Positions 46,951 to 62,239 of a stretch of 62,239 nt of DNA are shown here, piece after piece. The stretch comes from Kiritimatiellia bacterium (GTDB taxonomy: Bacteria > Verrucomicrobiota > Kiritimatiellia > RFP12 > UBA1067). Position numbers and translations under genes: made by a program. The DNA is taken from assembly GCA_045630425.1 (NCBI GenBank), contig JAZQTB010000100.1, forward strand, positions 1 to 62,239, given 5' to 3'. A model generated the notes under the pieces. The model saw only the letters and a program-made list of their open reading frames with translations, did not search any database and was not told the DNA's origin. Position 1 is the stretch's first letter. Every line of letters begins with the position of its first letter.

Positions 46951-47122
46951 TGAGACGATGCCGAAATGCCCGAATCCGCGTTGGACATTTATCACAGGAT
47001 GGTCTAAATAAGGGTATTATTTGTAGAAAGCCTGCCGAATGGCCTGAAGGCTGGTAGGTGAAGTTTTGAGGTGAAGGTGAACAATGGAGTACGAGGGTTG
47101 TGATACATTAGTTATAAAATTA

Positions 47123-47131
47123 TGATATAAT
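47123..47131 (+). promoter_or_regulatory. extended -10 element TGATATAAT upstream of the DUF4160/DUF2442 pair
   Basis: TGATATAAT at 47123-47131, 29 nt before GTG 47161. Confidence 0.45.
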
Positions 47132-47160
47132 ATTTACAGTTTTAACAAGAAAGGTATGAT

Positions 47161-47433
47161 GTGCCTACAATTTCTGAAAGTTTGAAAGGCGGTATAAAGA
47201 TTGCTGTCAATTACAGCGATCATAATCCACCACATTTTCATGTGGTCAAGGGTAGAAAGACTATTGCCCTTGTATCGATACGTGATGCTGTGGTTATTGA
47301 AGGCGTTTTGCCGCGCGTTTTGATGCATCGAGTTCTTGGATGGTGCGTATCCCATACTAAAGAATTGCTTGCCAACTGGGAACTTGCGCGGCAAGGTAAG
47401 GAGCTGAAATGGATTGATTGGACGATTGACTGA
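47161..47433 (+). CDS. DUF4160-family protein
   Basis: 90 aa. MPTIS...NYSDHNPPHFHV signature and W..L..W near the C-terminus. GTG start. Confidence 0.75.
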   Translation: MPTISESLKGGIKIAVNYSDHNPPHFHVVKGRKTIALVSIRDAVVIEGVLPRVLMHRVLGWCVSHTKELLANWELARQGKELKWIDWTID

Positions 47434-47445
47434 AAGGAGGATGTT

Positions 47446-47730
47446 ATGTTACATGATATTTGTATGGTAAAACCGGCAACAGGGCGCAAAGTGGATTGCT
47501 ATTTTACGACAGGTCATGTTAAGCGCTTTGATATGGCATATCTTCTTAAACCAGATTGCGGTCCGGTTTTTCGTCCATTGCGCGATCGTAAAACATTTTT
47601 GTCGACAATGACGGTTATGAATGGTACACTCGCTTTTGATGTCGCCGGTGGACGTAATGATCGCAAATGTGTAGATATAGATCCTGAAACGATTTTTGAA
47701 GAGGGTGTAACAGTATCGTCACCATATTGA
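47446..47730 (+). CDS. DUF2442-family protein (usual partner of DUF4160)
   Basis: 94 aa, 12 nt downstream of the DUF4160 gene. Pattern ..V...TGRKVDCYFTTGHVKRFD...F.PL.D...F..M.V.NGTLAFD is consistent with DUF2442 as I recall it. Confidence 0.65.
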   Translation: MLHDICMVKPATGRKVDCYFTTGHVKRFDMAYLLKPDCGPVFRPLRDRKTFLSTMTVMNGTLAFDVAGGRNDRKCVDIDPETIFEEGVTVSSPY

Positions 47731-47832
47731 ATTTTTACATCAGTAACTAAATAATGAAAGGAAGAAAAGAGAACTGATTGAAACTATATACCGATCGTAG
47801 TACATAGAACGGTCGGCTTCTCCACTTGATTA
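47731..47832 (+). repeat. intergenic module X, copy 1 (about 100 bp, second copy at 55722-55825)
   Basis: ATTTTTACATCAGTAAC..AATGAAAGGAAGAA..CTGATTGAAA..CCGATCGTAGTACATAGAACGGTCGGCTTCTCCACTTG is about 90% identical between copies. It contains the hairpin CCGATCG/CGGTCGG. Both copies start right after the stop of a two-gene TA-like module. Confidence 0.85.
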
Positions 47833-47916
47833 GTGATTAGGAGTCAGGGGTTAGTAGTTAGGAGTTAGAAAACTCTAAACTTAAAAACTCTAAACTAAAC
47901 CAAGGAGTGAGAGAGC

Positions 47917-47953
47917 GCGTAGGGTGGGAAACCTAACCTATGCAACGTACGCA
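47917..47953 (+). promoter_or_regulatory. hairpin plus AACGTACGC core, junction i
   Basis: Stem GCGTAGG (47917-47923) / CCTATGC (47937-47943), loop GTGGGAAACCTAA, then AACGTACGCA (47944-47953). Confidence 0.6.
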
Positions 47954-48174
47954 GTCTTGCGTATTTGGCTTTACCTGAAAACGACCAAAATTCCAGAAGG
48001 AGCCGGATATGTAGGATGCGTCACGTAGTGTATTCTGCGTGGCGTGTCTTCTGTTCGTGTTTCTTCAAGGCGCTTGGTCGTGCCTCAGGTAAAACATGGA
48101 TTTTGAAAGGCACGCCACTCTTCTTTTCTGCGCCAAGAGTGTTAACGTGCAAGGGAAACGGCGTGGAGAAGGAG
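47944..48174 (+). promoter_or_regulatory. conserved ~230-nt structured leader (module Z), copy 1, upstream of the Mrr-like gene
   Basis: Alignable over its whole length with 57253-57484. Three hairpins with invariant stems plus an alternative 8-bp pairing. Ends in GGAGAAGGAG 9 nt before ATG 48184. Confidence 0.7.
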
Positions 48175-48183
48175 AAATGAAAA

Positions 48184-49113
48184 ATGGAAAAACATTATTG
48201 GCTTCATCGTGCAAGTTACGAGGGTGGCTTGGTTATTTTAGAAAAGGAAAAGAAGCTGACAATAGGTTATTCGGATGCGGCTAGTGATGATGAAATGAAT
48301 ATGGCTTTCGCACAAAAGAATTATGATTCTTTTTGTTTGGCTTATACTAATGTTTATAATGGTAATATTGAGCGGTCTAAAAATAATCTGTGGCGCTTTG
48401 TTATTGAGATGCGGAAGGATGATATTGTAGTTGTGCCTTGCCCTTGGGGGTTTTATCTTTGTCGAGTGAACGGAGAGGCTGCTAAATGCAATAGAGATGG
48501 ACTTGATCTTGGATGGGAACGTGATGTTGAATTGCTTTCAGAAAAGCCTAAAACTCCCCGAGAATCGTATGCTAAATCAGGTCTGCTAAGTCGTATGAAG
48601 TGTTGTCAAACAACACTTTGTATTGATGATTTAAAGGAAGAAGTTGAATTGGCGATAAAACAAAAAACGCCATTTGATTTTGTTGGGGATGTAGCTAAGG
48701 TCATTCTTGAAAAATTTAAGGAACAAGGAAGCCCAGAGGGATTTGAGAATTATGTTGCAGCTGTCTTTGAGGCGATGGGAGCTGAAGTAGAAATTCTTCC
48801 TCGTAATTATTCAGGGAAGAAAGGAGATTGTGATGTCGAGGCTGTTTTCCCATTAATAAAGCTTGTAATATCAGTTCAATGCAAGAAACATGATGGAATT
48901 ACAGATGATTTTGCAGTGGAACAGATTAATTCATATGAAGCTAATGATAGAAGGAATGATCAAGATAGGTGGGATTACTGGAAATGGGTGGTGACAACGG
49001 CAGAAAAGTTTTCAGAAAATGCTGTTAAAAAGGCGAATGAAAACAATATTAGGCTTGTGACAGGGGTTGAATTTTGTAGGATGCTGCTAAATGGTGGTAT
49101 TAAAGTGATATGA
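48184..49113 (+). CDS. Mrr-cat (PD-(D/E)xK) restriction-endonuclease-like protein with an unassigned N-terminal domain
   Basis: The C-terminal half reads FENYVAAVFEAMGAEVEIL...GKKGDCDVEAV....ISVQCKKH...VVTTAEKFSENAVKKANENNIRLV.G..F, which matches the Mrr_cat D..(D/E)xK layout. The N-terminal ~150 aa are unrecognised. Confidence 0.7.
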   Translation: MEKHYWLHRASYEGGLVILEKEKKLTIGYSDAASDDEMNMAFAQKNYDSFCLAYTNVYNGNIERSKNNLWRFVIEMRKDDIVVVPCPWGFYLCRVNGEAAKCNRDGLDLGWERDVELLSEKPKTPRESYAKSGLLSRMKCCQTTLCIDDLKEEVELAIKQKTPFDFVGDVAKVILEKFKEQGSPEGFENYVAAVFEAMGAEVEILPRNYSGKKGDCDVEAVFPLIKLVISVQCKKHDGITDDFAVEQINSYEANDRRNDQDRWDYWKWVVTTAEKFSENAVKKANENNIRLVTGVEFCRMLLNGGIKVI

Positions 49114-49130
49114 TAAAGGAGGATGTTATA

Positions 49131-51281
49131 ATGATAGTAGGAGTTTGTAGAATCTTAAGTTTGGTTATTATTGCTACTTGTTGTACTTGTAGACTGCAAG
49201 CCATGGTATACGAGCCTTATATGGGGTGGAATTTTGTGACCGAAGGTGATGTAGTTGTATTTGGAGGTAGGTATTCTATTGGCGGTATTACAGATTATTT
49301 TAATGCTTCATATGGGGGAACATCGCAAAAGCCTAATGCTGGTACAGTAGAAATTCCATCTCATTCTTATGACGGGAAACCCCTTGTTGCGATAAGGGAT
49401 TGCGCATTTGCTTATTGGGATGGCGTCCAGGAATTTATAATACCTAGTACAGTGACAAATCTCTCTTCTTTGGCTTTTATGAGGAAGCATCCTTTGTATA
49501 GTGTTTGGTATGAGTTAGGTAGTGTTACATCTTTGGTATTTAAAGGTAATGCTTCTTATATTGAATATCCTTCGAGTTTCAAAGAAGCCTTGCCAAATTG
49601 TACTGTATATGTTTCAGTTTCTTCATCTGGGTGGAGAACGGATATTCCAGGAATGTGGAATGGATTGCCAATTAGATATTTGGAACAATTTTATTCCGTA
49701 AAATTTAACGCCAACGGCGGTACTGGGACGATGGCAAATCAGTCGTTCGTTTATGGAACATCGCAGAATTTGACGGCTAATGGTTTTAGTCGTGACGGTT
49801 ATTCATTCGTTGGCTGGGCGACGAGTGCTAATGGTGCGAAGGTGTATTCAGATAAGGAAAGCGTAAAGAACCTAACTACCACAGCTAATGGAACTGTGAA
49901 TCTGTATGCGGTCTGGGAGAGTATATTCGGTATTGAGAATGTTATCTCAAGGCCTCGTTATCCGTGGAGCGGCAAGGTGGATATTGATGTGACAGTGAAG
50001 GGGGCGGAAAACGAAGATTATTTAGTTTCTCTCGTTGTTCGTGATTTGGATGGCGGCACGAATCTCCCCTTGCGTACCGCGTGGCAAGCGGGCGGCACAG
50101 TGACGAACAATGCCTTTATTGTAAAACCTGGTGCGCATCGCTTTACGTGGGATGCGGCAACGGATATTACGAATGACTGCGATTTCGCCAATGTTGTGGT
50201 AAATGTATCGGCGGAGCATAGCGCGATTATTGGAGCGAAGAAGGTATTGACGCTTGAGGTTGCGGACTATGCAGGAACAGAGACGCTTGCGAATGTGCCG
50301 GTATTAGTGCGGCTTTCGACGGCGATAAATGGATTTAGCTATGCCGATTTCGTTGATACGAATGGCGGTGATTTAATATTCACCGATGAGAGTGGAAGCA
50401 TTGTCTATCCGCATGAGATCGACGAATGGCATACGGACGGTGAATCGCTTGTATGGGTGAAGTTGCCGCAGATGGCGAATGGTACAAAGTTCAAGATGGC
50501 TTACGGCAACTCACAACTTATAACTCATAACTCACAACTCTCATCGCACGAAGTGTGGCGCGACTATGCTGGTGTTTGGCACATGAACGAAGATTCGGGG
50601 ACGGCGTATGACTCTACGGCGAATGGGTTGGATGGGATTCCAAGCAAGGGCACAAATGAACTCGCCGATATAAGTCAGATGGTTGCGTATGAGAATGGTG
50701 CGTGTGGCAGGGCGAGGGTGAATGGGGCGATGAATGGCAGCAGCCTAAATTATATGTGCGTTCCAGCGAGTAGAAAGTTTTATTTTGGAGGACACTTTGT
50801 TGCGTCTGGCTGGTTTATGGCTAATGATATTGCGGAAAATGATGATCCTCGCCTGATTTCAAAGAAAAATGGTATCTCATATGCATTTAAGAACAAAGCA
50901 GGATTTGAAATTAATTATGAGAATGCTTTGACTAATTTGTTAGTAAGAGGACAGGGCACTTCAAACTTTATTACTAATACCCCATCAATATTAAACTCAT
51001 GGGTAAATCTCGTAGTTGTTTTTTCAGGTACAAATGTAACGGTTTATGCGAATGGGAAGAATGTCGGCTCGGGAATTATTTCTGAAGTATTAGATAATGA
51101 CGATTATCTTACACTTGGTGGAGGTGATGACCCGTATTCATTAAACGGTCAATACGACGAAATCCGCCTGCGAGGCGGGTCGCTTTCGGCGGATTGGATT
51201 AAGGCGGATTACGATATGATTGTGAATCGCAGCTTCTTGCGCTATGGGCCAGTGGAGAACGGGAAGGGTGTAGCGGAATGA
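49131..51281 (+). CDS. secreted multidomain surface protein: BspA-type LRR, Listeria-Bacteroides (InlB B-type) repeat, Ig-like, DUF2341-like and LamG-like domains
   Basis: ATG 49131 lies 7 nt after AAGGAGG; the ORF track starts at 49110. Hydrophobic N-terminus and LRR_5-like EIPSH..IRDCAF..EFIIPSTVTNLSSLAF. VKFNANGGTGTM..GYSFVGWAT, DLIFTDESG..YPHEIDEWH..LVWVKLP (DUF2341-like), and C-terminal LTLGG...YDEIRL (LamG-like). Confidence 0.7.
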   Translation: MIVGVCRILSLVIIATCCTCRLQAMVYEPYMGWNFVTEGDVVVFGGRYSIGGITDYFNASYGGTSQKPNAGTVEIPSHSYDGKPLVAIRDCAFAYWDGVQEFIIPSTVTNLSSLAFMRKHPLYSVWYELGSVTSLVFKGNASYIEYPSSFKEALPNCTVYVSVSSSGWRTDIPGMWNGLPIRYLEQFYSVKFNANGGTGTMANQSFVYGTSQNLTANGFSRDGYSFVGWATSANGAKVYSDKESVKNLTTTANGTVNLYAVWESIFGIENVISRPRYPWSGKVDIDVTVKGAENEDYLVSLVVRDLDGGTNLPLRTAWQAGGTVTNNAFIVKPGAHRFTWDAATDITNDCDFANVVVNVSAEHSAIIGAKKVLTLEVADYAGTETLANVPVLVRLSTAINGFSYADFVDTNGGDLIFTDESGSIVYPHEIDEWHTDGESLVWVKLPQMANGTKFKMAYGNSQLITHNSQLSSHEVWRDYAGVWHMNEDSGTAYDSTANGLDGIPSKGTNELADISQMVAYENGACGRARVNGAMNGSSLNYMCVPASRKFYFGGHFVASGWFMANDIAENDDPRLISKKNGISYAFKNKAGFEINYENALTNLLVRGQGTSNFITNTPSILNSWVNLVVVFSGTNVTVYANGKNVGSGIISEVLDNDDYLTLGGGDDPYSLNGQYDEIRLRGGSLSADWIKADYDMIVNRSFLRYGPVENGKGVAE

Positions 51282-51307
51282 ACCACAGACCAACACGAAC
51301 GCGAGGT

Positions 51308-51583
51308 TCAGAAAAGATCGCTGTGCGAGCCGGTGCGGGTCAATTCAAGGACGAGAACGTCCTCATGAATCTGGTAGATGAGCAACCAGTCGGGCGTAAT
51401 ATGGCATTCGCGGTGATTGGCCCAGTTGTTGCTGAGAGGGTGGTCGCGGTTTGCAGGGGAAAGGGGTTCGCCATTGGCGAGTTTGGTGACGATTGCATGA
51501 AGCCGTTCGACCGGCATATGTCGCCTCAGCATCAGTTTGTAGTCGCGCTTGAACGCAGAGGTGTGTCGGACGACATACTTCAT
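51308..51583 (-). CDS. yafQ: type II toxin, YafQ/RelE family mRNA interferase
   Basis: FKRDYKLM..., DHPLSNNWANHRECHITPDWLLIY....LELTRTGSHSDLF is near-canonical YafQ. ATG at 51583 overlaps the antitoxin stop (ATGA). Confidence 0.9.
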   Translation of the reverse strand: MKYVVRHTSAFKRDYKLMLRRHMPVERLHAIVTKLANGEPLSPANRDHPLSNNWANHRECHITPDWLLIYQIHEDVLVLELTRTGSHSDLF

Positions 51584-51849
51584 TTCGCCAAATCCTTCCA
51601 CATCTGCCCGAGATCCGTGTATGCTGGATGGTTCGGGTCGTGTGCGATGCGCTCGCCCTCTTCCATCGCCGCGATGGTCTCGGCGTTCGGCAATGGATCG
51701 GCCGAAATGGTGAAGGGTATGCGATTCTCCCGGATTACGGTTTTGATGTATACAGTGATTACTGATGACGCCGAAAGGCCGACGCTGTCGCAGAAGTCCA
51801 CAAAGCGCTTCTTGGTTGGGGCATCGAGTGAGAATGTCATGTTTGCCAT
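51580..51849 (-). CDS. dinJ: type II antitoxin, DinJ/RelB family
   Basis: MANMTFSLDAPTKKRFVDFCDSVGLSASSVITVYIKTVIRENRIPF is an RHH DinJ pattern. ATG at 51849 is preceded by AAGGAG; the ORF track's longer N-terminus is unlikely. Confidence 0.85.
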   Translation of the reverse strand: MANMTFSLDAPTKKRFVDFCDSVGLSASSVITVYIKTVIRENRIPFTISADPLPNAETIAAMEEGERIAHDPNHPAYTDLGQMWKDLAK

Positions 51850-52073
51850 AGTATTTTTACACTCCTTTGAATCAAAAACACGTATATCATACACTAAACT
51901 CACTGGTGTAGTCAAGGGTGCGGCATGTCAAGTAAGTGGCATGAAAGAATTTGAATGGAAAAAATGGGGAACCTCCAAATACATCAGTGGTAGACGTAGA
52001 TAATGGGTATATGATAAAATTATGCCATGAAAAGCGATGATAATATCAAAGAAAGATATTGTCCACGGTTGGT

Positions 52074-52082
52074 TGATAAAAT
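52074..52082 (+). promoter_or_regulatory. extended -10-like element TGATAAAAT, 10 nt upstream of the SNF2 helicase ATG
   Basis: TGATAAAAT at 52074-52082; a second copy lies at 52012-52020. ATG at 52093 has no SD. Confidence 0.35.
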
Positions 52083-52092
52083 GTAGCGGAAA

Positions 52093-54792
52093 ATGAGAAA
52101 ACAGAAGAAACCTTCGTTCGGTGTCGGTTGGGTTACGACAGATGAAGATGAACGCAACCTTCGTCGTTTTAGGGCGGAGACGGAGCCGATGACTGTTCGG
52201 TTTGTCGGAGATAAGTCGATTGCGCCGTTTGGTGATTATGATGTCATCAGCGTAGAGGACCGACAGAAGAAGTCGTATCGCGTTGAACTTCGTTCCCTGA
52301 CGAAATTCTCGAACACATGTTCATGCCCTGATTTTCGGAAAAGTGCGCTCGGAACATGCAAGCATATTGAGCGCGTTTTGCTCCGCGTAAAGCGCAAGGC
52401 GAAGGGACTTGTCCAGTCTCCATGCGGAGAGATATTCATGTCTCCTGATTTTAAGAATGTGTGTTTCCAGCGTGGCGATTCCATGGCTGACGGTGCGGCG
52501 GAAAGTCTCTCGCGGCATTTTACCGCTGAAGGACGATTGAAGATTGTTTCGCCGTTGGCGGTGGAAGCCTTGTTGACGACATGCGAGCGCCTTTTCCGAA
52601 AGTCGCCTGGTGTCATTCGTGTTTCTCCGGCAGTCACGGAATTTGCGAAGGATCTTCGGCAGAGAGAATACCTTGCATCTACGGTGGGGGCTTTCGCTTT
52701 GGAAATGGCATCGTGTGACGGGAAGTGGCCGTTTTTGAAAACTGGTCTCTATCCATATCAGGTTGAAGGGGCACTTCATTTGGCAACGAAGGGTCGTGCC
52801 ATTCTTGCCGATGAGATGGGGCTCGGGAAGACGGTTCAAGCGATTGCGGCGGCGCTTCTGTTGCAGGAAGTCGCAAAAATTAAGCGCGTTCTTGTTGTTG
52901 TTCCGACTTCGCTTAAAGGGGAATGGGCGGAGCAGATCGCGTTCTTTTCTGATGTTGAGACGGAACTGCTCTCAGGCGGACGCCGTGAACGGCTTGCACG
53001 TTATGTCGGGACTGGATCGTTTTTCCTTATCGCAAACTACGAGCAGATTATGCGGGATGGGATGGATGCGATCGACAGATTTAAACCGGATCTGATTATT
53101 CTTGATGAGGCGCAGCGGATTAAAAACTGGAATACGAAAACTGCTCGCACATTCAAGAAGTTGCAATCGCGTTTCGCGTTCGTTTTGACGGGAACTCCCC
53201 TTGAAAACCGTATCGATGAGTTTTATTCAATAGCGGAGTTTGTAGATCCGTCGCTGTTCGGAAGTCTTTTCCGCTTCAATCGGGCGTACTATCGGTTTGA
53301 TGAGAAGGGAAAATCGGCGGGCATGCAGAATCTTGACGATCTGCACGAGAAGGCGGCAACGATCATGCTGCGCCGCCGAAAGGATATGGTCGAGGACGAA
53401 TTGCCGGGACGCACTGACAAAAATTATTTCGTTCCGATGACAAAAGAGCAGAGTCTGCGTTACTGCGAGTTCGAAGACAAAGTGGCAAGGCTGTGCGCCC
53501 GCGCAAAGAAGCGGCCGCTTACAAAGGATGAGATGAAACTTCTACAGCGGCATCTCGCCTGTATGCGGATGTTGTGCGACACTTGCTTCATCTTGGATGA
53601 AGAAATTCGAGTGTCGCCTAAAATCGACGAAGCGATGGCAGTTTTTGAAGATATCTTTTCGTCCGATTCAAGTCGCAAAATTGTTGTGTTTTCCGAGTGG
53701 GTGAAGATGCTCGAGCTTCTTGAAGAACGGCTGAAAAAGGAAGGTGTCGGATTTGCCGTACATACCGGAAGCGTTCGTCAGGATCGGCGTCGTGAAGAGT
53801 TGAGGCGCTTCAAGACCGACCCGGATTGCCGGGTGCTGTTGTCGTCTGAAGCCGGCGGAGTGGGGCTTAATCTTCAAAATGCCAGCGTGGTGATGAATCT
53901 CGATCTTCCATGGAATCCGGCGAAACTTGAGCAGCGTATCGCACGTGCGTGGAGAAAGAAGCAAAGTCGTGAGGTTCTCGTAATCAATCTTGTATCTGAA
54001 GGAACGATAGAACAGCGGATGCTGGGTACGCTGAAGTTCAAGCAGGGCCTCGCCGATATGGTACTGGATGCACGCGGCGATGCATCTGATTTTGAGTCCG
54101 AAAAGTCCAAGAACGCATTTTTGGCGCGTGTCACATCGCTTATGGAATTTCAGCAGCCGGCGGTTGTGTGTGCAGACGGTACGGCAGGGACGCCTTCGGC
54201 AGAAAATGATTCTGAAAATGAAACATCGCAAAAGATGCGCATCGACGAAGTGTTGACAGAGGAAACGCTTATGCGTCTTGCCGAGTTGGAGAAACTTGGG
54301 CTCGTAACTCTTGGAGAGGAGGCGAAGAAGCGGCTTTCATTGTTGAACCAAGGCGGTGAAACTCAATCTTTCAAACGGCAGGATCGAAACCTTGCAATGG
54401 AGAAGCGGCTTACCGTTGCACGATCTGCAATGGAAAAGGCGAGGCGATTGGTACAGATGGGCGATCTTCTGCATGGAGGCGGTTTTGAGGAAGAGTCTAT
54501 GAAACCATATTGCGAGGCCGCTTCGCTTGCTGGTGCTGCGATCTTGTTTCTCGATGAAGGGAAGCGTAGTGGCGGTGAATCGGTTGATGATGTTCCTGAT
54601 GAGGTCTCGTCATTGACAAATGACGACTATTCTCATATTCAAAGAGAGGGAATGCTTTCCAAAGAAGTGATTGCAACGCTTGATTACGCTTTGGACAAGG
54701 GGTTCATTCCTAATGCAGAACATCGTATGAGAATCCTGATGGAAGAATGCGCGAATCTTGCTAATGGATTTGGTTCGAGAGGAATAAGGTGA
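52093..54792 (+). CDS. SWIM zinc-finger / SNF2-family helicase with a ~250-aa C-terminal extension
   Basis: SWIM CSCPDF..(8)..CKHIERV. SNF2 motifs LADEMGLGKTVQAIA, ILDEAQRIKN, LTGTPLENR. Helicase-C motifs SSEAGGVGLNLQ and WNPAKLEQRIARAWR. The last ~250 aa are unrecognised. Confidence 0.85.
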   Translation: MRKQKKPSFGVGWVTTDEDERNLRRFRAETEPMTVRFVGDKSIAPFGDYDVISVEDRQKKSYRVELRSLTKFSNTCSCPDFRKSALGTCKHIERVLLRVKRKAKGLVQSPCGEIFMSPDFKNVCFQRGDSMADGAAESLSRHFTAEGRLKIVSPLAVEALLTTCERLFRKSPGVIRVSPAVTEFAKDLRQREYLASTVGAFALEMASCDGKWPFLKTGLYPYQVEGALHLATKGRAILADEMGLGKTVQAIAAALLLQEVAKIKRVLVVVPTSLKGEWAEQIAFFSDVETELLSGGRRERLARYVGTGSFFLIANYEQIMRDGMDAIDRFKPDLIILDEAQRIKNWNTKTARTFKKLQSRFAFVLTGTPLENRIDEFYSIAEFVDPSLFGSLFRFNRAYYRFDEKGKSAGMQNLDDLHEKAATIMLRRRKDMVEDELPGRTDKNYFVPMTKEQSLRYCEFEDKVARLCARAKKRPLTKDEMKLLQRHLACMRMLCDTCFILDEEIRVSPKIDEAMAVFEDIFSSDSSRKIVVFSEWVKMLELLEERLKKEGVGFAVHTGSVRQDRRREELRRFKTDPDCRVLLSSEAGGVGLNLQNASVVMNLDLPWNPAKLEQRIARAWRKKQSREVLVINLVSEGTIEQRMLGTLKFKQGLADMVLDARGDASDFESEKSKNAFLARVTSLMEFQQPAVVCADGTAGTPSAENDSENETSQKMRIDEVLTEETLMRLAELEKLGLVTLGEEAKKRLSLLNQGGETQSFKRQDRNLAMEKRLTVARSAMEKARRLVQMGDLLHGGGFEEESMKPYCEAASLAGAAILFLDEGKRSGGESVDDVPDEVSSLTNDDYSHIQREGMLSKEVIATLDYALDKGFIPNAEHRMRILMEECANLANGFGSRGIR

Positions 54793-54815
54793 GAATCATA
54801 AGGAGTTCCTCTCTC

Positions 54816-54852
54816 CGTGTTTCGAGTTGTAGGAAAGAGAACCCGAAACACG
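54816..54852 (+). terminator. perfect 9-bp stem hairpin after the SNF2 gene (terminator-like, no T-run)
   Basis: CGTGTTTCG (54816-54824) / CGAAACACG (54844-54852) with a 19-nt loop. Confidence 0.3.
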
Positions 54853-54912
54853 CAACCAGAAATCAAACCAATGAGTGAGTATGATCAATTGTGAAATAAT
54901 ATCGTTCCATTG

Positions 54913-54941
54913 TTGACTTTAAGACCTGAAATTGAGATAAT
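54913..54941 (+). promoter_or_regulatory. canonical sigma70 promoter for the small-ORF/ART-like pair
   Basis: TTGACT (54913-54918), 17-nt spacer, GATAAT (54936-54941), then AGGAGG and ATG 54952. Confidence 0.6.
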
Positions 54942-54951
54942 AGGAGGCGTT

Positions 54952-55143
54952 ATGTGTGAAATGATTATATCAAAAAAAGTATGTCGTCGTACTCCTGTGA
55001 GAATCGCAAGGGATCGTGCGCTTGACGGTCTTGCTGAATATGTTCGCAAGCAGTGCGCAACACCACAGCGTTGTGCGCGGTACTTGGCTTCAGTCGGGCT
55101 TACTCGTTCGGCTAAGGGGCGCATTCTTGTTACGCCAATGTGA
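54952..55143 (+). CDS. 63-aa basic protein, candidate antitoxin/partner (possibly DUF3791-like)
   Basis: ATG 5 nt after AGGAGG, in the same frame as ORF-track entry 54910..55143. It ends 8 nt before the ART-like gene. AEYVRKQCATPQRCARYLASVGL loosely resembles DUF3791. Confidence 0.5.
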   Translation: MCEMIISKKVCRRTPVRIARDRALDGLAEYVRKQCATPQRCARYLASVGLTRSAKGRILVTPM

Positions 55144-55151
55144 TAATCTAA

Positions 55152-55709
55152 ATGTCGCATCGTCTTGAGTTCGTTTATGGTTATCATGGGTGTTGCAAAT
55201 CCGTGGCAGATTCTATTCTCTCTGGATCGGATGTATTGCTTTCTAGTGAAAACGATTACGATTGGCTCGGAACGGGCATTTATTTTTGGGAAGAAGCTCC
55301 TGCCCGTGCTTATGAGTGGGCGAAAAAACTGCATCCGAACGAACCTGCGGTGATTGGGGCAAAAATACGTCTCGGACGGTGTCTTAATTTGTTGGATGTG
55401 ACAGCTTATAAATCACTTCGCGACACATATAATATCTTGAAAGAGAATGTCTCTTTTCTGCTGCCGAGAAACGGAAAGCATTATCACCGACTTGATTGCC
55501 TTGTAATTAACACAGCAACGAGTTTTGCTGAAAAAGTTTTGGGGCTGCCATACGATACAGTAAGGTGTCCTTTCCCCGAAGGAGAGCCGGTTTTCCCTGG
55601 ATCGACCATTCTTGACCGTTCTCATATTCAGATAGCCGTTCGTAATCAGACGGCATTGGCGGAATTGTTCGCGGTTGACATCGCAAGTTTTGAAGGAAGG
55701 TGGGAGTAG
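55152..55709 (+). CDS. H-Y-type ADP-ribosyltransferase-fold-like protein (DUF3990-like), candidate toxin
   Basis: 185 aa. VYGYHGC (H motif), ~25 aa, DYDWLGTGIYFWEE..A.EWA (G-x-G-x-Y-F motif), and C-terminal SHIQIAVRNQTALAEL. The pattern matches my recollection of DUF3990 and the PARP-like H-Y-[E/x] clade. Confidence 0.45.
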   Translation: MSHRLEFVYGYHGCCKSVADSILSGSDVLLSSENDYDWLGTGIYFWEEAPARAYEWAKKLHPNEPAVIGAKIRLGRCLNLLDVTAYKSLRDTYNILKENVSFLLPRNGKHYHRLDCLVINTATSFAEKVLGLPYDTVRCPFPEGEPVFPGSTILDRSHIQIAVRNQTALAELFAVDIASFEGRWE

Positions 55710-55721
55710 TGTCTCGGGACA

Positions 55722-55825
55722 ATTTTTCACATCAGTAACCAAACAATGAAAGGAAGAAGAGATAACTGATTGAAATGATATAACCGATCGTAGTACATAG
55801 AACGGTCGGCTTCTCCACTTGGTTA
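55722..55825 (+). repeat. intergenic module X, copy 2
   Basis: About 90% identical to 47731-47832. It starts 12 nt after the stop of the ART-like gene. Confidence 0.85.
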
Positions 55826-55845
55826 GGGGTTAATAGAGAGGTAGA

Positions 55846-55934
55846 AGGTGAAGGTTTAAGGTGAACAGCGGAATGATATCTTTTTTGAAATAAAGAAAAT
55901 ATCCATTGTTCATCTTCACCTCAAATCTTCACCT
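55846..55934. repeat. long imperfect palindrome built from GGTGAAG / CTTCACC words
   Basis: Left arm AGGTGAAGGTTTAAGGTGAACAGCGGAATGATAT (55846-55879), A/T-rich spacer, right arm ATATCCATTGTTCATCTTCACCTCAAATCTTCACCT (55899-55934). Confidence 0.8.
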
Positions 55935-55972
55935 AAATCAAAACTCTAAACTAAACCAAGGAGAGAGAAAGT

Positions 55973-56009
55973 ATGCAAGATGGGAAACCTAACTTGCATA
56001 ACGTACGCG
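55973..56009 (+). promoter_or_regulatory. hairpin plus AACGTACGC core, junction ii
   Basis: Stem ATGCAAG (55973-55979) / CTTGCAT (55993-55999), loop ATGGGAAACCTAA, then AACGTACGCG (56000-56009). Confidence 0.6.
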
Positions 56010-56027
56010 ATATTGTGTTTAAATTTT

Positions 56028-56036
56028 GATATAATA
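56028..56036 (+). promoter_or_regulatory. extended -10 element TGATATAAT upstream of the PIN gene
   Basis: TGATATAAT at 56028-56036. RBS AAAGGAGAAGG precedes ATG 56064. Confidence 0.45.
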
Positions 56037-56063
56037 TGAAACATAAAAAGAAAGGAGAAGGCA

Positions 56064-56534
56064 ATGTCAGATAAAAAGAAAGTTTATGTTGAGACAAGCG
56101 TTATCAGTAACCTGACGGCGCGGCCTTCTTCGCGGGTTGTTGAAGCAGGTAGGCAGATAGCTACGATTGAATGGTGGGAGCGGGCAACGCAGGAGTATGA
56201 ATTGTATGGGTCATTCGTTGTTGAACGTGAGGCTGCAAGAGGTGATGCAGAGGCTGCTTCTCGGCGGTTGGAAAAACTTCGGGACTTGAAGTCTGCAGTG
56301 TTTGATGAACGTGCAATTATTTTGGCAGAAGCATTGCTTGCGGATACAGCAGTTCCACGAAATTCTTATGATGACGCGTTGCATATTGCTACTGCGGCAA
56401 TCAATGAAATGGACTTTTTGGTGACATGGAACTGTAAGCATATAGCTAATGCAGTCACTCGACCAGTTATTCGAAAAACCTGTGAACGTATGGGATATGT
56501 ATGTCCTGAAATCTGTACGCCAGATGAACTTTAA
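56064..56534 (+). CDS. PIN-domain protein (VapC-like toxin candidate)
   Basis: 156 aa. YVETSVIS (first acidic motif), DDALHIATAAINEMDFLVTWNCKHIAN (C-terminal acidic motif). Confidence 0.65.
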   Translation: MSDKKKVYVETSVISNLTARPSSRVVEAGRQIATIEWWERATQEYELYGSFVVEREAARGDAEAASRRLEKLRDLKSAVFDERAIILAEALLADTAVPRNSYDDALHIATAAINEMDFLVTWNCKHIANAVTRPVIRKTCERMGYVCPEICTPDEL

Positions 56535-56548
56535 TTAAGGAGGTTGTT

Positions 56549-56686
56549 ATGGAAAAAGAATCTATAATGGAAGAATTATGGAGAATAAAGGAAGAGATTG
56601 CGTCGCAGTATGATTCTTTTAAGGAATATGCTGCTGATATGTTGCGTTTGCAAGCGGCCGCTCATCCTGAGTTACCTACAACTTAA
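56549..56686 (+). CDS. 45-aa ORF downstream of the PIN gene, candidate cognate antitoxin
   Basis: AAGGAGG 6 nt before ATG 56549. Sequence MEKESIMEELWRIKEEIASQYDSFKEYAADMLRLQAAAHPELPTT, stop 56684-56686. It is absent from the ORF track because it is under 60 aa. Confidence 0.45.
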   Translation: MEKESIMEELWRIKEEIASQYDSFKEYAADMLRLQAAAHPELPTT

Positions 56687-56833
56687 GGAAATTGAATTTC
56701 AGCCGATGGAGGGCAAGGGAAGTCGGCTATATCGCTTGGAGCGATGAATGATCTTTGATAGAGGCGGGGGAATGCTTGCACAAGAACCTGCCAAATGGCC
56801 TGAAGGTTAGTTTAGATTTGTTTCATGTTGTGG

Positions 56834-57050
56834 TTTTTAGCCGTGTAGTGGTGTAGAAAGTGTAGAAGTGGGGAAATTGAACCACGGAATACACGGAACA
56901 CACGAAAATTAGGTTGGAAGTCCGATGTCTGAAGTCGGAGAGTTTTTAGCCGTGTAGAAGTGTAGAAGGTGTAGAAGTGGGTGAATTGAACCACGGAATA
57001 CACGGAACACACGGAATGTCGGAAAGGGGAATAGATGGAAGTCTGAAGTC
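56834..57050. repeat. two tandem copies of a ~109-bp unit, each containing a GTGTAGAAG / CACGGAA word hairpin
   Basis: TTTTTAGCCGTGTAG..GTGTAGAAGTGGG..ATTGAACCACGGAATACACGGAACACACG starts at 56834 and again at 56943. Confidence 0.85.
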
Positions 57051-57222
57051 TGTTGTTCTGAATTAAATCCCTTTACTCTTCACTCTTTACCCTTTACTCA
57101 TTACCCATTACTCATTACTCATCTCTCATAACTAACCAATAGGCAAAACCTTTTATTCGCCGTGGCAGAAAAGCACGGTTGAAAAAAGGAGCCGCGTGAT
57201 CCTACTTTAGGACCGCGGTTCA

Positions 57223-57262
57223 TCCTCCGTAGTCCCGAAGGGCGAAGGAGGAAACGTACGCA
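57223..57262 (+). promoter_or_regulatory. hairpin plus AACGTACGC core, junction iii
   Basis: Stem TCCTCC (57223-57228) / GGAGGA (57247-57252) with an inner CCC-GAA-GGG, then AACGTACGCA (57253-57262). Confidence 0.55.
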
Positions 57263-57484
57263 ATCTTGCGTATTTGGCTTTGAACGAAAACGACCAAAAT
57301 TTCCAGATGAAGCTGAGTATGTGAGATGCGTCACGTAGTATATTCTGCGTGGCGTGTCTTCTATTCGTGTTTCATCAAGGCGCTTGGTCGTGCCTCGTTC
57401 AAGACATGGATTTTGAAAGGCACGCCACTCTTCTTTTCTGCGCCAAGAGTGTTAATGTGCAAGGGTAATGGCGCGGAGAAGGAG
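57253..57484 (+). promoter_or_regulatory. conserved ~230-nt structured leader (module Z), copy 2, upstream of the 135-aa ORF / FGE / BACON operon
   Basis: Aligns with 47944-48174. Ends in GGAGAAGGAG 10 nt before ATG 57495. Confidence 0.7.
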
Positions 57485-57494
57485 TGGAAGGAAA

Positions 57495-57902
57495 ATGTCA
57501 GTAACAAAGACCGAAATCAAATCGTCGCTTAAAAATGAGTTATTGGAATTATTGTATATAAGTCATGCCAATAACAAACCAATGTATGTAAATGGTCGTG
57601 TTTGCGGAGACATCCTGGCATGCGACATAGATGATAGTGATGGGCAGATCTCAGTTTTCGTTTTTTGGAGGTCGAAAAACGATTCAATTCAGGAACCCTA
57701 TGATGCAGAGATTTCTAGTAGGAATTATTTAGACAGTATGTGTAATGTAATGCCTAAAGGATATGATGTCTATGAACATAAGGATGGATTGAGGTTAAGG
57801 AAGGTATATAGTAGTGAATATAGTGCGAAAGAAATTGTAAGAGAGATTTTAAGCGTGTATCAAGTCTTTGGCGGTCTGCAAATATGTAGGCTGGAGTTTT
57901 AA
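57495..57902 (+). CDS. hypothetical 135-aa protein
   Basis: The ATG sits at the same distance from the leader's GGAGAAGGAG as in copy 1; the ORF track starts at 57468. No recognisable motif. Confidence 0.5.
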   Translation: MSVTKTEIKSSLKNELLELLYISHANNKPMYVNGRVCGDILACDIDDSDGQISVFVFWRSKNDSIQEPYDAEISSRNYLDSMCNVMPKGYDVYEHKDGLRLRKVYSSEYSAKEIVREILSVYQVFGGLQICRLEF

Positions 57903-57966
57903 TAGGGAAGATTTGCTTGACAGATAATATCTCAATAGAATTTTTCTGAAATTGGAGGAGGCTATT

Positions 57967-59112
57967 ATGAAAAAGACAATTGTGGTATTGATTGGGTTTT
58001 ATATGTTACAAGGTTATTCGGCTCCGCTCATATCAAATGTGAAAGCTGAACCAATTGCTCCATGGGGAGAAATGGCTGTATCATGGAACGTAAGTAATAG
58101 TTCTTCGAAAAATGCGGCAGAATATAGCGGTTATTTGGTAATGAGTAATGTTATTTCAAGTGTAACATATTGGAAAAAGGTGGATGTTCCGCAGAAAGAT
58201 GGGTTTTGCCGAACTTATATTGATAAAAATATGTATTCAGGAAAATGGGATAAATCGGATCAGTGGGTCTTTCAAATACGCTTGTTTCTAAAATATTGTA
58301 TTGTAGATTTGTCTGCTGGTCATAGTACTTTATCTTATCCGATTTCATATTTAACCGATGAGCCGAAATACGGGTGGACAGAGGAATATAAAACAACAAA
58401 ATTAGTGTTGAGATTAATAGAGCCCGGTACATTTAAGATGTCGGGAAGAGCTGGGGACAGATGGACTGAGTATGACATCAGGTTAACAAAGCCATATTAT
58501 ATAGGCATATTTGAAGTAACCCAAAAACAATATAATTTAGTGGCAGGAGAGAACCCATCTTGTTATATGGGAGATAGACGGCCAGTAGAGAATGTTTCAT
58601 ATAAAGAACTCCGAGGACTTTATAATTGGCCGACAGATAAAAGATTGCCAACAGGTTTTTTAGGCAAATTAATTAAAAGAACTGGGGGGATATTTGATCT
58701 GCCTACAGAAGCGCAGTGGGAATATGCTTGTCGGGCTGGTACGGAAAGCCGTTTCAATAATGGAGGGGATACAGAGGAAGATCTTGCGTTGTTGGGGCGG
58801 TATGGTGGTAATGTGGCCGATGGGAGAGGCGGTTATTCTGAACATACTGAAGTGGGTTCTTATCTTCCAAATAATTGGGGGATTTATGATATGCATGGAA
58901 ATGTATGGGAATGGTGTCGCGACTGGGTTTGGAACAGCCCTAATGAAGATATGGTTGATCCTCTTGGAAAAGAGTCAGGGAGTGAACGTTGCTATCGTGG
59001 TAATTGTTGGCGTATGTCTGAATATATTTATTTCTTCTCAAGTAGTATGAGTTCTACTAAGCCAGAGAATAAGTATGAGGCGCTTGGATTTAGAGTTGTG
59101 AAAGAGCTGTGA
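57967..59112 (+). CDS. secreted protein with a C-terminal FGE-sulfatase (SUMF1/formylglycine-generating-enzyme-like) domain
   Basis: ATG 57967 after GGAGGAGG opens the signal-like MKKTIVVLIGFYMLQG. FEVTQKQYN, PVENVSY, LPTEAQWEYACRAGT, WGIYDMHGNVWEWCRDW, and GFRVV. Confidence 0.8.
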   Translation: MKKTIVVLIGFYMLQGYSAPLISNVKAEPIAPWGEMAVSWNVSNSSSKNAAEYSGYLVMSNVISSVTYWKKVDVPQKDGFCRTYIDKNMYSGKWDKSDQWVFQIRLFLKYCIVDLSAGHSTLSYPISYLTDEPKYGWTEEYKTTKLVLRLIEPGTFKMSGRAGDRWTEYDIRLTKPYYIGIFEVTQKQYNLVAGENPSCYMGDRRPVENVSYKELRGLYNWPTDKRLPTGFLGKLIKRTGGIFDLPTEAQWEYACRAGTESRFNNGGDTEEDLALLGRYGGNVADGRGGYSEHTEVGSYLPNNWGIYDMHGNVWEWCRDWVWNSPNEDMVDPLGKESGSERCYRGNCWRMSEYIYFFSSSMSSTKPENKYEALGFRVVKEL

Positions 59113-59128
59113 TACGAAAGGACCAAAT

Positions 59129-62100: not shown

Positions 62101-62239
62101 GGAGGTTGACGGCGAGATCGTATATGCTGCTGGTCAGCTTGTGACGAATCTTACTTCACAGGCTCAAGGTGTTGTTACGCTTTATGCTGTTTGGGAGGCG
62201 GGAAAGGTTGGAAATCCCGTAATTACTCCTGGTGATGGT
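59129..62239 (+). CDS. giant secreted surface protein, partial (runs off the right edge): multiple BACON-like domains, then Listeria-Bacteroides repeats
   Basis: Open frame of 1037 codons from ATG 59129 to the window end. It is not in the ORF track because it has no stop. Signal-like MNSRIMLFCCVMSAIAAIQA. At least six units of the type W..V....G.G.G.V.Y.V..N....R.G.I.V.G..(F)TV.Q. C-terminal YTISYNANGGSGTMDG..GYLFKGWAT. Confidence 0.75.
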   Translation, partial: MNSRIMLFCCVMSAIAAIQAEIVSEFSDVVQMPILQDGAQISQSIIIKSSPCLAKEAKVFVDDNLLFSSTTASEFLWQPQQLGTHKLVHAAGDLAFTTTVYVVQFDYFVQSNPNPPNKPSRISYITPLTRSFGTEGGGGGIITSGESTWVASVSDPWITLNTTSGTVGFPVAYMVSANTNVESRVGYIYVNEWTHTVTQAGLGADVDKTNIMVENIGGTGNINVTAQNRIVWQARPNVDWISVSPTSGAGEGSVSYQVAPYNEVATRQGTMTVAGNTVTVFQYGRRMKLESYSETRDWYTHVIPITVNALAITEWSVTPNASWISIVDAGNGKGGDLVSIAIAENPSYKARTGTVTIGSETFTVTQEGRTDLAFSVSPVSSEASVEGAYGLVAVTATPDLPWTAKSGANWVTIVATTASGAGNGNIVYSASPNPTLYNRTGTITVTPDKASGMTAKTHTVTQPAAVAALSLSGYEFVAAGESCAVAVSVADIVEWEVNESLDWLTVNGSTSRTGPGVVTLQASANNTIYPRSGTVTIARKTFTVTQKARGVEVEYDSKLFGTDGGMESISIHPDGNSSWTAVASDPTWITIFQGDSGTGDGEIMYIISPYVGDGSARTGWITVGDKKIYITQRAYDLSISPNGKKVIGNNGAGEIGVSASIGDVWNAIVTEPWITIVDGYDSGTGSGTVRFIYTENNTGKTRTGKIIVAGEVYTLEQAARTMVAITATAGRGGKVSGGGSYDLGSEVTLTAIPDDGYKFSYWTGDVSTMQNPLKVTADVAKSVSAVFEPLPIAFESVTSGTDGVRLSWNNLAWATAYRIYRGVTSVPSSAIVLTEIVNTGNCSYLDESGDVGTTYWYWIEAEGAEDSVMSDPMTGMKQKPIVISPITYLNLRGAIHTNPNSYQEGTLVSFTNPSGVTGYTFAGWTPSQITADMTGTQTVRANWTANSYTISYNANGGSGTMDGTPAAYDREATVAENGFVRDGYLFKGWATEVDGEIVYAAGQLVTNLTSQAQGVVTLYAVWEAGKVGNPVITPGDG

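Follow-up and report, generated by a model that had tools for sequence, protein, structure and literature searches.

Two leader copies in a Kiritimatiellia contig belong to a widespread, uncatalogued RNA family with two alternative predicted folds

The leader copies and their RNA family

The window analyzed here, the whole 62,239-nt stretch of contig JAZQTB010000100.1 from a Kiritimatiellia bacterium (assembly GCA_045630425.1), contains two copies of a leader. One lies upstream of a gene for an Mrr_cat restriction-endonuclease-like protein and the other upstream of a 135-aa open reading frame (ORF), for which no Pfam family was matched and which is followed by an FGE-sulfatase gene and a giant BACON-repeat gene (Table 1). 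A sequence-only reading of the window had proposed this duplication, and it holds: the segments 47944-48183 and 57253-57484 are 89% identical (E = 2.8e-83), with copy 1 ending 9 nt before the ATG at 48184 and copy 2 ending 10 nt before the ATG at 57495. Between 48011 and 48174 our recount gives 14 substitutions, where that reading had counted 12 from 48011 on.

The two copies are members of a large structured RNA family and not a mere duplication, a conclusion that is real and strongly supported. The family is established far beyond chance: it has hundreds of members, and 21 of the 45 base pairs tested have changed on both sides. A BLAST-type search of 61 related genomes found the leader in 32, often in multiple copies. 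From an alignment of 42 near-full-length copies (A2) we built a covariance model, R1, which gave full-length matches in 214 of 301 genomes of the same order (35 of 53 genera), with E values down to 1e-45 and copy numbers per genome that reach at least 8. The genome of the window has a third copy on another contig, and seven in total with a broader model. A second covariance model, R2, to which Bacteroidota sequences were added, found the leader in 43 of 121 sampled genomes of the window's phylum (25 of 68 genera, other classes included) and in 11 of 121 sampled Bacteroidota genomes (about 9%; 10 of 120 once the seed genome is set aside).

A pattern scan of named genomes identified as hosts Kiritimatiellia metagenome-assembled genomes (MAGs) from the gut or rumen of goat, sheep, yak, deer, horse and Hadza humans. 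Twelve named Bacteroidota MAGs give full-length model matches with E values of 1e-7 to 1e-16; the carriers in this phylum include Bacteroidales bacterium EPI_MAG_00072, Paludibacteraceae, Parabacteroides, UBA5349, the Flavobacteriales UBA5869, Crocinitomicaceae, Parvicellaceae, Vicingaceae, Mesoflavibacter and Roseivirgaceae. The 2.4-Mb genome of EPI_MAG_00072 alone contains 67 copies. Leaders of the Kiritimatiellia type (150-183 bits; loci L101, L111, L116, L143, L154, L176 and L178) were also seen on contigs deposited as Firmicutes or Proteobacteria under the names Gemmiger, Faecalibacterium sp. CAG:74, Azospirillum sp. 51_20, Anaerovoracaceae and Acutalibacteraceae. These are probably mis-binned or mislabeled MAG contigs.

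The family is previously uncatalogued and has no Rfam class, in agreement with the sequence-only reading, which had recognized no known riboswitch or leader class. At the gathering threshold, Rfam 15 matched tRNA alone in the whole window and no leader family; at E ≤ 10, the region 47880-48220 gave only a spurious K10_TLS match. The 12 Bacteroidota loci gave only a tmRNA match, and for one of the Bacteroidota loci (L147) the relaxed threshold of E ≤ 10 yielded nothing beyond weak miRNA-type noise. No description of the family came up in text searches of open-access papers, with the subscription literature outside their scope.

Two alternative folds

Helices were found without prior assumptions, by scanning for pairs of columns in which both sides had changed, together with pair counts. 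Two folds, each supported by covariation, account for them. Fold A comprises the P1 hairpin, a long interrupted stem (Pa-Pb-Pc) and hairpin hp1, while Fold B comprises a long P2 helix, hairpin d and the long-range helix Palt. Coordinates are collected in Table 1, in which the window coordinate equals 47943 plus the core position.

In Fold A, 98.0% of the cells in the 42-copy alignment are paired, versus 85.7% in shuffled controls and 31-50% in slid controls, and the pairs changed on both sides amount to 252 cells. RNAalifold independently arrives at this nested fold (44 pairs, 22 of them compensated) and extends Pc to 7 bp. The six pairs of P1 are 99.2% paired; five never vary, and the hairpin is invariant in Kiritimatiellia. 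Three pairs of Pb covary (CGACC/GGTCG with TCGCC/GGCGA and CCGCC/GGCGG), giving such variants as UCGCCAA/UUGGCGA and CCGCCAA/UUGGCGG. The energy of hp1 alone is -22.1 kcal/mol, and its 3' strand is common to hp1 and Palt. The junction nucleotides of the core are highly conserved in alignment A2. The same helices are evident when the two window copies are compared: from copy 1 to copy 2, ACCT>GAAC at 47973-47976 is matched by AGGT>GTTC at 48087-48090 in Pa, and A>T at 47998 is compensated by T>A at 48064 in Pc. The four changes at 48087-48090 had been assigned by the sequence-only reading to the loop of a hairpin hp2; they belong to the 3' strand of Pa, and their partners lie upstream of the point at which its count began.

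In Fold B, P2 occurs as GUAUUUGGCU/AGCCGAAUAC or as GUAUGACGCU/AGCGGAAUAC with tandem G.A. Its covariation is modest in Kiritimatiellia (90.5% paired versus 86.3% shuffled) and strong in Bacteroidota, where pairs such as AUUCUUG/CAAGAAU, CAUUUCC/GGAAAUG and GUCUCUC/GAGAGAC replace one another and the mean run, 5.95, exceeds the 4.40 ± 0.18 obtained when partners are shuffled. A candidate pairing TATGT/ACATG ('PK2') was dropped, as 4 of its 12 variants are uncompensated and the 10-bp P2 explains the covariation better. Palt has 98.4% pairing, with covariation at four pairs (GUGUCUU/AAGGCAC alternates with GUGUUUU/GAAACAC, for instance), and its duplex energy is -20.1 kcal/mol. It is kept in Bacteroidota: in a cross-phylum alignment, A5, that was not fitted to Palt, it is 91.8% paired with six covarying pairs. 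Palt forms a terminator-like stem and excludes the lower half of hp1. Hairpin d is paired in 100% of 63 sequences and has three covarying pairs (GGC/GCC with GGT/ACC, and C-G with U-A). The thermodynamic minimum free energy (MFE) structure of copy 1 corresponds to Fold B (-100.5 kcal/mol, z = -6.3) and contains Palt, d, the platform hairpin and an extended P2 that includes P0, in which the conserved 5' ACGUACGC pairs with the 5' strand of hp1. This pairing may be a genuine extension of P2.

The drawing given by the sequence-only reading overlaps with these folds in part. Its hp1 (48018-48025 / 48038-48045) is real, and longer than drawn, and its alternative 8-bp pairing, GTGGCGTG/CACGCCAC, is likewise real and grows to the 12 bp of Palt. 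The strongest helices (Pa, Pb, Pc, P2 and d) had been missed. Its hp2 (48079-48085 / 48108-48114) did not survive: it is 81% paired, equal to the shuffled mean, has no covarying pair, shows C.A mismatches where Palt is compensated, and is incompatible with hairpin d. Its hp3 falls in the variable apical region of the expression platform, where an hp3-like pairing gives a weak statistical signal (-9.2 kcal/mol, against -8.3 ± 0.18 kcal/mol for shuffled partners).

The helices of the two folds compete for the same nucleotides. Seven to eight nucleotides are shared by hp1 and Palt and four by P1 and P2, and P2 and Palt cross Pa-Pc, while Fold A and Fold B are each fully nested on their own. Energies computed under constraint average -74.3 kcal/mol for Fold A and -77.8 kcal/mol for Fold B over the 42 copies; the corresponding values are -74.9 and -77.4 kcal/mol for copy 1 and -71.9 and -71.4 kcal/mol for copy 2. 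As modeled, the two folds are mutually exclusive and nearly equal in predicted energy. Substitutions in the shared segment follow both partners. At core position 99, G>A is rescued in hp1 (U-A) and breaks Palt, whereas U>C at position 97 is rescued in Palt in five of five cases (C-G) and in hp1 in three of five, the other two having A.C. These patterns indicate that both hp1 and Palt are under selection.

Table 1. Coordinates of the leader copies, their helices and the adjoining features (helices are given for copy 1 unless stated)
Feature	Window coordinates	Strand	Core positions	Remarks
Copy 1 conserved core	47944..48134	+	1-191	model positions 1-191 (alignment A2); R1 194 bits, E = 1.4e-42; R2 178.5 bits
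Copy 2 conserved core	57253..57443	+		R1 200.5 bits
P1 hairpin	47947-47952 / 47959-47964	+	4-9 / 16-21	near-palindrome TACGCA-GTCT-TGCGTA
P2	47961-47970 / 48001-48010	+	18-27 / 58-67	10 bp; overlaps the P1 3' strand
Pa	47971-47978 / 48085-48092	+	28-35 / 142-149	covariation in 7 of the 8 pairs, with as many as 4 pair types
Pb	47982-47988 / 48074-48080	+	39-45 / 131-137	CGACCAA / TTGGTCG; 99% paired
Pc	47997-48000 / 48062-48065	+	54-57 / 119-122	all 4 pairs covary, 4 pair types
hp1	48017-48028 / 48035-48046	+	74-85 / 92-103	12 pairs, 99.6% paired (42 copies), 5 covary
Palt	48039-48050 / 48107-48118	+	96-107 / 164-175	GTGGCGTGTCTT / AAGGCACGCCAC; 12-bp G+C-rich long-range helix
Hairpin d	48069-48073 / 48080-48084	+	126-130 / 137-141	loop displays TTGG
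Palt, copy 2	57349-57360 / 57417-57428			helix coordinates in copy 2 are copy 1 values + 9309 before 47990 and + 9310 after
Copy 1 expression platform	48119..48175	+		48119-48134 pairs with 48160-48175, burying the Shine-Dalgarno sequence GGAGAAGGAG (48165-48174); MFE -23.9 kcal/mol
Copy 2 expression platform	57429..57494	+		Shine-Dalgarno sequence GGAGAAGGAG (57475-57484) paired with tract 57430-57445; start 57495; MFE -26.1 kcal/mol
Copy 1 downstream gene	48184..49113	+		309-aa Mrr_cat restriction-endonuclease-like protein; Pfam PF04471, E = 1.3e-11
Copy 2 downstream gene	57495..57902	+		135-aa ORF
FGE-sulfatase gene	57952-59112			follows the 135-aa ORF
BACON-repeat giant gene	59129 to window end			follows the FGE-sulfatase gene
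Module A	47735..47943	+		hairpin CCGATCG..CGGTCGG; CTCCAC..low-complexity insert..GGAG; GAAA-capped hairpin 47917-47943 (GGGTGGGAAACCTAACC)
Module A, second copy	55728..56008	+		ends in AACGTACGC, no core after; leads into PIN gene at 56064

Expression platform, downstream genes and interpretation

A U-rich tract lies directly 3' of Palt. In Bacteroidota a U run was present in 24 of the 24 copies examined, the elements ending in ...CACGCC-UUUUUU; here a TAnnTTTG -7 box lies about 25-50 nt upstream of the element, and 11-86 nt (32-53 nt in the first set) separate the element from the start of the ORF. Among the Kiritimatiellia-type copies, 88 of 125 have at least five U in 8 nt. Judged from sequence, the 11-12 bp of Palt, the U run and the competing hp1 have the layout of an intrinsic-terminator attenuator, and termination is predicted.

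In Kiritimatiellia the tract and a GC clamp form the 5' strand of a 15-20-bp hairpin, whose 3' strand is the purine-rich Shine-Dalgarno (SD) region. The duplex between tract and SD region has an energy of -18.5 kcal/mol, versus -15.4 ± 0.28 kcal/mol with shuffled partners. This architecture is common to most copies, its apical part being variable. The core is kept while the platform differs by lineage, terminator-like in Bacteroidota and an SD hairpin in Kiritimatiellia. A same-strand ORF follows 124 of 130 distinct copies, with the start codon most often 45-58 nt past the core. Pairing of the last Palt bases (CCAC...) with the platform apex recurs and could be an anti-sequestor, on which we do not rely.

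The genes downstream are diverse. The largest Pfam classes among the 105 proteins encoded downstream are BspA-type LRR_5 (9), LRR_8 (7), FGE-sulfatase (4), Sel1 (3) and A2M (3), with one or two each of HsdM, N6_Mtase, BrxA, PD-(D/E)XK, protein kinases, peptidases C10 and S8 and glycosyltransferases, and also helicases. About half begin with a hydrophobic, signal-like segment. No candidate ligand emerged from the gene context of these 105 proteins. In EPI_MAG_00072 (loci L147, L086, L198, L206, L210, L213 and L215-L217) each leader has a second, small hairpin (agccccttcggggct) behind it, then a spacer rich in A and a gene whose product begins MKT.... The downstream proteins inspected in this genome resemble one paralogous secreted family with the motif ...F(T/K)DxRDxxxYK(T/A)V.MPDGK.W..., which we take to be akin to the major paralogous domain of Fibrobacter succinogenes. 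In this genome the leader appears to have expanded together with one surface-protein family.

We favor, with moderate confidence, the reading that the leader is a cis-acting two-state attenuator or riboswitch-like leader, made up of a core of about 190 nt and a variable 3' platform. The sequence-only reading had also seen the layout of a switch or attenuator, and the covarying, mutually exclusive helices bear it out and support a structured leader. In Fold A, hp1 would tie up the 5' strand of Palt, and transcription would read through; in Fold B, Palt with the U tract would form, and transcription would end before the gene. In Bacteroidota, Palt followed by U6-8 would act as an intrinsic terminator and hp1 as the antiterminator. 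In Kiritimatiellia, the window included, the pyrimidine tract would also serve as the anti-SD strand, and control would be at least partly translational. The balance between Fold A and Fold B would be set by an external signal, which might be a small molecule, an ion or a protein. Fold B could keep the 7-bp Pb as a kissing contact between the apical loop of P2 (CCAA) and the loop of d (UUGG). From the sequence and the modeled structures we infer the transcription start, the termination, the switching between the folds, which of them is ON, and the role of the signal.

Several observations weigh against this reading. The shuffle controls leave shared ancestry and phylogeny uncorrected. The complementarity of P0 is conserved and its covariation scant, and P2 and Pa-Pc might in principle coexist as a pseudoknot instead of alternating, the counterargument being geometric. 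In Kiritimatiellia the tract after Palt is C/U-mixed, with 70% of copies passing a simple U-run test, and the SD motif is paired in the platform MFE structure in only 42 of 72 copies. The terminator-like Palt stem encloses about 55-65 nt, which is atypical for a terminator. Lastly, no common pathway or metabolic theme was found among the 105 downstream proteins, which is unusual for metabolite riboswitches. This last result counts against a metabolite riboswitch of the classical kind and in favor of either a global signal or an effector protein.

The same observations separate the leader from the systems that it most resembles. Like trp-type 1:2/2:3/3:4 attenuators and terminator riboswitches (purine, thiamine pyrophosphate), it is a 5' leader with mutually exclusive helices, in which Palt and the U tract face a competitor, hp1, that sequesters the 5' strand of Palt, and in which the core is conserved and the platform lineage-specific (terminator or SD sequestration). 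Unlike them, it has no conserved leader peptide and no known ligand, its genes share no pathway, and its 'terminator' stem has about 55-65 nt of structured insert within it; moreover, its whole 190-nt domain would refold globally, whereas terminator riboswitches refold a small platform beside a fixed aptamer. The many copies per genome before unrelated surface, adhesion and unknown genes recall the global-signal pattern of the cyclic di-GMP (c-di-GMP) riboswitches I and II (GEMM), but Rfam gave no sequence or structure match to them. Searches for GGDEF (PF00990) found no such gene in any of eight carrier genomes tested, while the control search was positive in 8 of 14 reference genomes. Because GGDEF is absent from all eight, c-di-GMP is unlikely to be the signal, and a c-di-GMP riboswitch was rejected. 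With SD-sequestering leaders, namely translational riboswitches and the fourU and ROSE thermometers, the leader shares a pyrimidine tract that pairs with a purine-rich SD near the start codon; however, a large conserved domain upstream is coupled to its platform, the SD helix is missing from the Bacteroidota members, and a 15-20-bp helix with a GC clamp is too stable to melt at physiological temperature as the thermometers do. Diversity-generating retroelements, retrons, bridge RNA, omega-RNA and HDV-like ribozymes were considered and dropped, with Rfam as the one formal test: the genes downstream are too varied and the order of helices is a misfit.

The exclusivity of hp1 and Palt is also what separates a two-state leader from a single static pseudoknotted 5' untranslated domain in which all helices form together, hp1/Palt being possibly a folding intermediate, and which would constitutively stabilize the mRNA, mark it for processing or serve a housekeeping RNA-binding protein as a platform. 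A pseudoknot resembling a four-way junction can indeed be drawn from P2, Pa, Pc and Palt, and the conservation of the junction nucleotides, the lack of a known ligand and the unrelated downstream genes would all suit such a domain. We nevertheless consider it unlikely, since hp1 and Palt cannot coexist and yet both carry compensatory changes, since the two nested folds are near-equal in energy over 42 copies, and since, on geometric grounds, a 30-nt loop closed by P2 with zero-length linkers would hardly form some 20 bp downstream. An independent small RNA gene, acting in trans from a promoter and terminator of its own and with readthrough only incidental, would make sense of the -7 box about 25-50 nt upstream in Bacteroidota, which with Palt and its U run would delimit a discrete RNA of about 175 nt. 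The constrained distance to a same-strand ORF in 124 of the 130 copies, the pairing of the Kiritimatiellia 3' part with the SD of the next gene, and the implausibility of 67 near-redundant small RNA genes in one 2.4-Mb genome make this quite improbable. The sequence-only reading had linked the leader to operons whose very long genes encode secreted repeat proteins, and from this link had suggested processive antitermination. The link is not borne out. A leader of the put, EAR or RfaH/LoaP type, making RNA polymerase resistant to terminators in long operons, would fit the copies that head very long genes (the BACON giant here, LRR giants elsewhere) and the accessory character of the genes, as in RfaH and UpxY regulons. 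The roughly 105 copies with a downstream protein, however, precede anything from 70-aa ORFs to giant proteins, cytoplasmic defense genes included, and many of them stand before single short ORFs of 70-250 aa. Rfam found no match to EAR or other antitermination RNAs, and the terminator-like helix at the end of the element, together with the hidden SD, indicates attenuation or translational control and not a terminator-resistant polymerase; we regard antitermination as very improbable.

Folding as DNA rather than RNA deserves mention for the 5' edge of the leader. The core, or the P1 palindrome TACGCAA-TC-TTGCGTA, could be a site-specific recombination site or cassette junction, the structure being that of folded single-stranded DNA as in attC. 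Similarity between loci starts and stops at AACGTACGC, several unrelated types of upstream module join the core at the same base, one module (A) joins the core at 47944 and unrelated sequence at 56000, and there is a truncated copy at C104:18460. As in integrons and in single-promoter systems such as Mycoplasma vpma/vsp, a conserved structured element marks where variable genes, accessory or surface, meet a promoter region, with a sharp break at the P1 palindrome. Against this, no Phage_integrase or Resolvase gene lies on the contig (the two tyrosine recombinases and one serine recombinase of the genome are elsewhere), no integrase or invertase is nearby, and the copies are scattered singly and form no arrays; on these grounds an integron-like cassette array with a local recombinase was also rejected. 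The many G.U pairs fit the sense strand only, and a function as RNA is indicated both by the lineage-specific terminator or SD platform, tied to the ribosome-binding site, and by the constant spacing before the start codon. We hold the DNA-level explanation to be highly improbable; recombination may explain at most P1 and the mosaic 5' edge, and not the 190-nt core. To a small protein, the alternative that the sequence-only reading had itself allowed for, we give next to no credence. A 54-codon frame (48016-48180) is open in both window copies, but it is not conserved across 125 copies: the aligned start codon is missing in 20 (six more are unalignable), the median open length is 27 codons with 50 codons reached in only 20 copies, and the substitutions are compensatory in helices, not synonymous.

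Two smaller candidates within the core were set aside on alignment A2. A start-stop mini-ORF (AUG-UAG/UAA/UGA, 48009-48014) is not conserved, is absent in the TACGAAGG subtype and follows a U-R-R pattern. A CsrA-type GGA site in ACAUGGAU lacks a conserved GGA, many copies having UGA.

Beyond the two-state attenuator, we put forward only tentatively, as possible and rather less than probable, that the leader is an orphan riboswitch class. The domain of about 190 nt would sense a global small-molecule or ion signal other than c-di-GMP, and refolding of the whole domain would gate dozens of unrelated surface, secreted and anti-phage defense genes in at least two phyla, Verrucomicrobiota (Kiritimatiellia included) and Bacteroidota, with the 67 copies in one genome serving a single paralogous surface-protein family. 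As is general for riboswitches, the leader has a covarying structured 5' domain and a mutually exclusive platform that differs between lineages; no single ligand or pathway links its downstream genes.

Should the two-state model hold, the leader would be among the most widespread classes of bacterial cis-regulatory RNA missing from the catalogues, ranging from the gut and rumen Kiritimatiellia MAGs, where it is common, through their phylum and, in Bacteroidota, from gut Bacteroidales to marine Flavobacteriales. It precedes cell-surface genes (BspA-type LRR, Sel1, A2M, BACON giants and, as we presume from the motif, Fibrobacter-type paralogous-domain proteins) as well as defense genes (Mrr, HsdM, BrxA, helicases). 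Its signal, once found, would reveal a global circuit controlling surface variation and defense in poorly studied gut bacteria. Two complete alternative folds, backed by covariation and equal in predicted stability, would make a good model for large-scale RNA switching. Annotators of the genomes that carry it could also use the leader to locate the 5' ends of transcription units with accessory genes.

Upstream modules and the accessory island

Module A, which directly precedes copy 1, is probably the 5' part of the same transcript as the leader core. It has five copies in the genome (47735-47943, 55728-56008, C104:16255(-), C104:18460(-) and C116:21045(+)). Three of them are joined to a core and one is joined at AACGTACGC to unrelated sequence before the PIN gene; the copy at C104:18460 is truncated and breaks after P1 and the 5' strand of P2. 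This pattern suggests that modules are shuffled or recombined at the leader's 5' edge. Similarity between the mosaic loci breaks at the 5' half of P1, and among about 44 related loci at least four unrelated types of upstream module abut the core at the same base. The full transcript may be 300-700 nt long with a variable 5' domain.

Examples of other upstream modules are GGCAAAACCTTT followed by a hairpin and GGAGCCGCG..CCGCGG, and CTGCGGAAACGCATCCGACGCCCGCAG. In nearly all of the modules the last element, abutting P1 on its 5' side, is a hairpin with a GAAA-type loop; in that of module A, an internal loop resembles the 11-nt tetraloop receptor.

The two cores and the orphan end of module A, the three such sites in the window, are all in direct orientation. 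Both leaders and the orphan module A sit inside an AT-richer accessory island (46951-62239) that encodes Mrr_cat, a LamG/Flg_new secreted protein, an SNF2 helicase, PIN, FGE-sulfatase and the BACON giant, and that is without a recombinase.

Sigma-70 promoter scans upstream of both copies yielded no more than a guess for copy 1, TTGAAT-17-AATAAT at 47727-47755. A conserved noncoding block at 56690-56800, far upstream of copy 2, is also found on another contig (C17; L003 ~1760-1900, minus strand), again far upstream of the leader there, and reads TATCGCTTGGAGCGATGAATGATCTTTGATAGAGGCGGG..GCTTGCA..GAACCTGC..GCCTGAAG. It may be the real promoter or the 5' end of long leaders.

Low-complexity stretches that appear to be built from recurring words occur at 47833-47900, 55846-55934, 56841-57015 and 57071-57125. 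The words are GTTAG/CTAAAC, GGTGAAG/CTTCACC, GTGTAGAAG/CCACGGAA and runs of TACTCAT, and the stretches form variable inserts in the upstream modules, like expansion segments.

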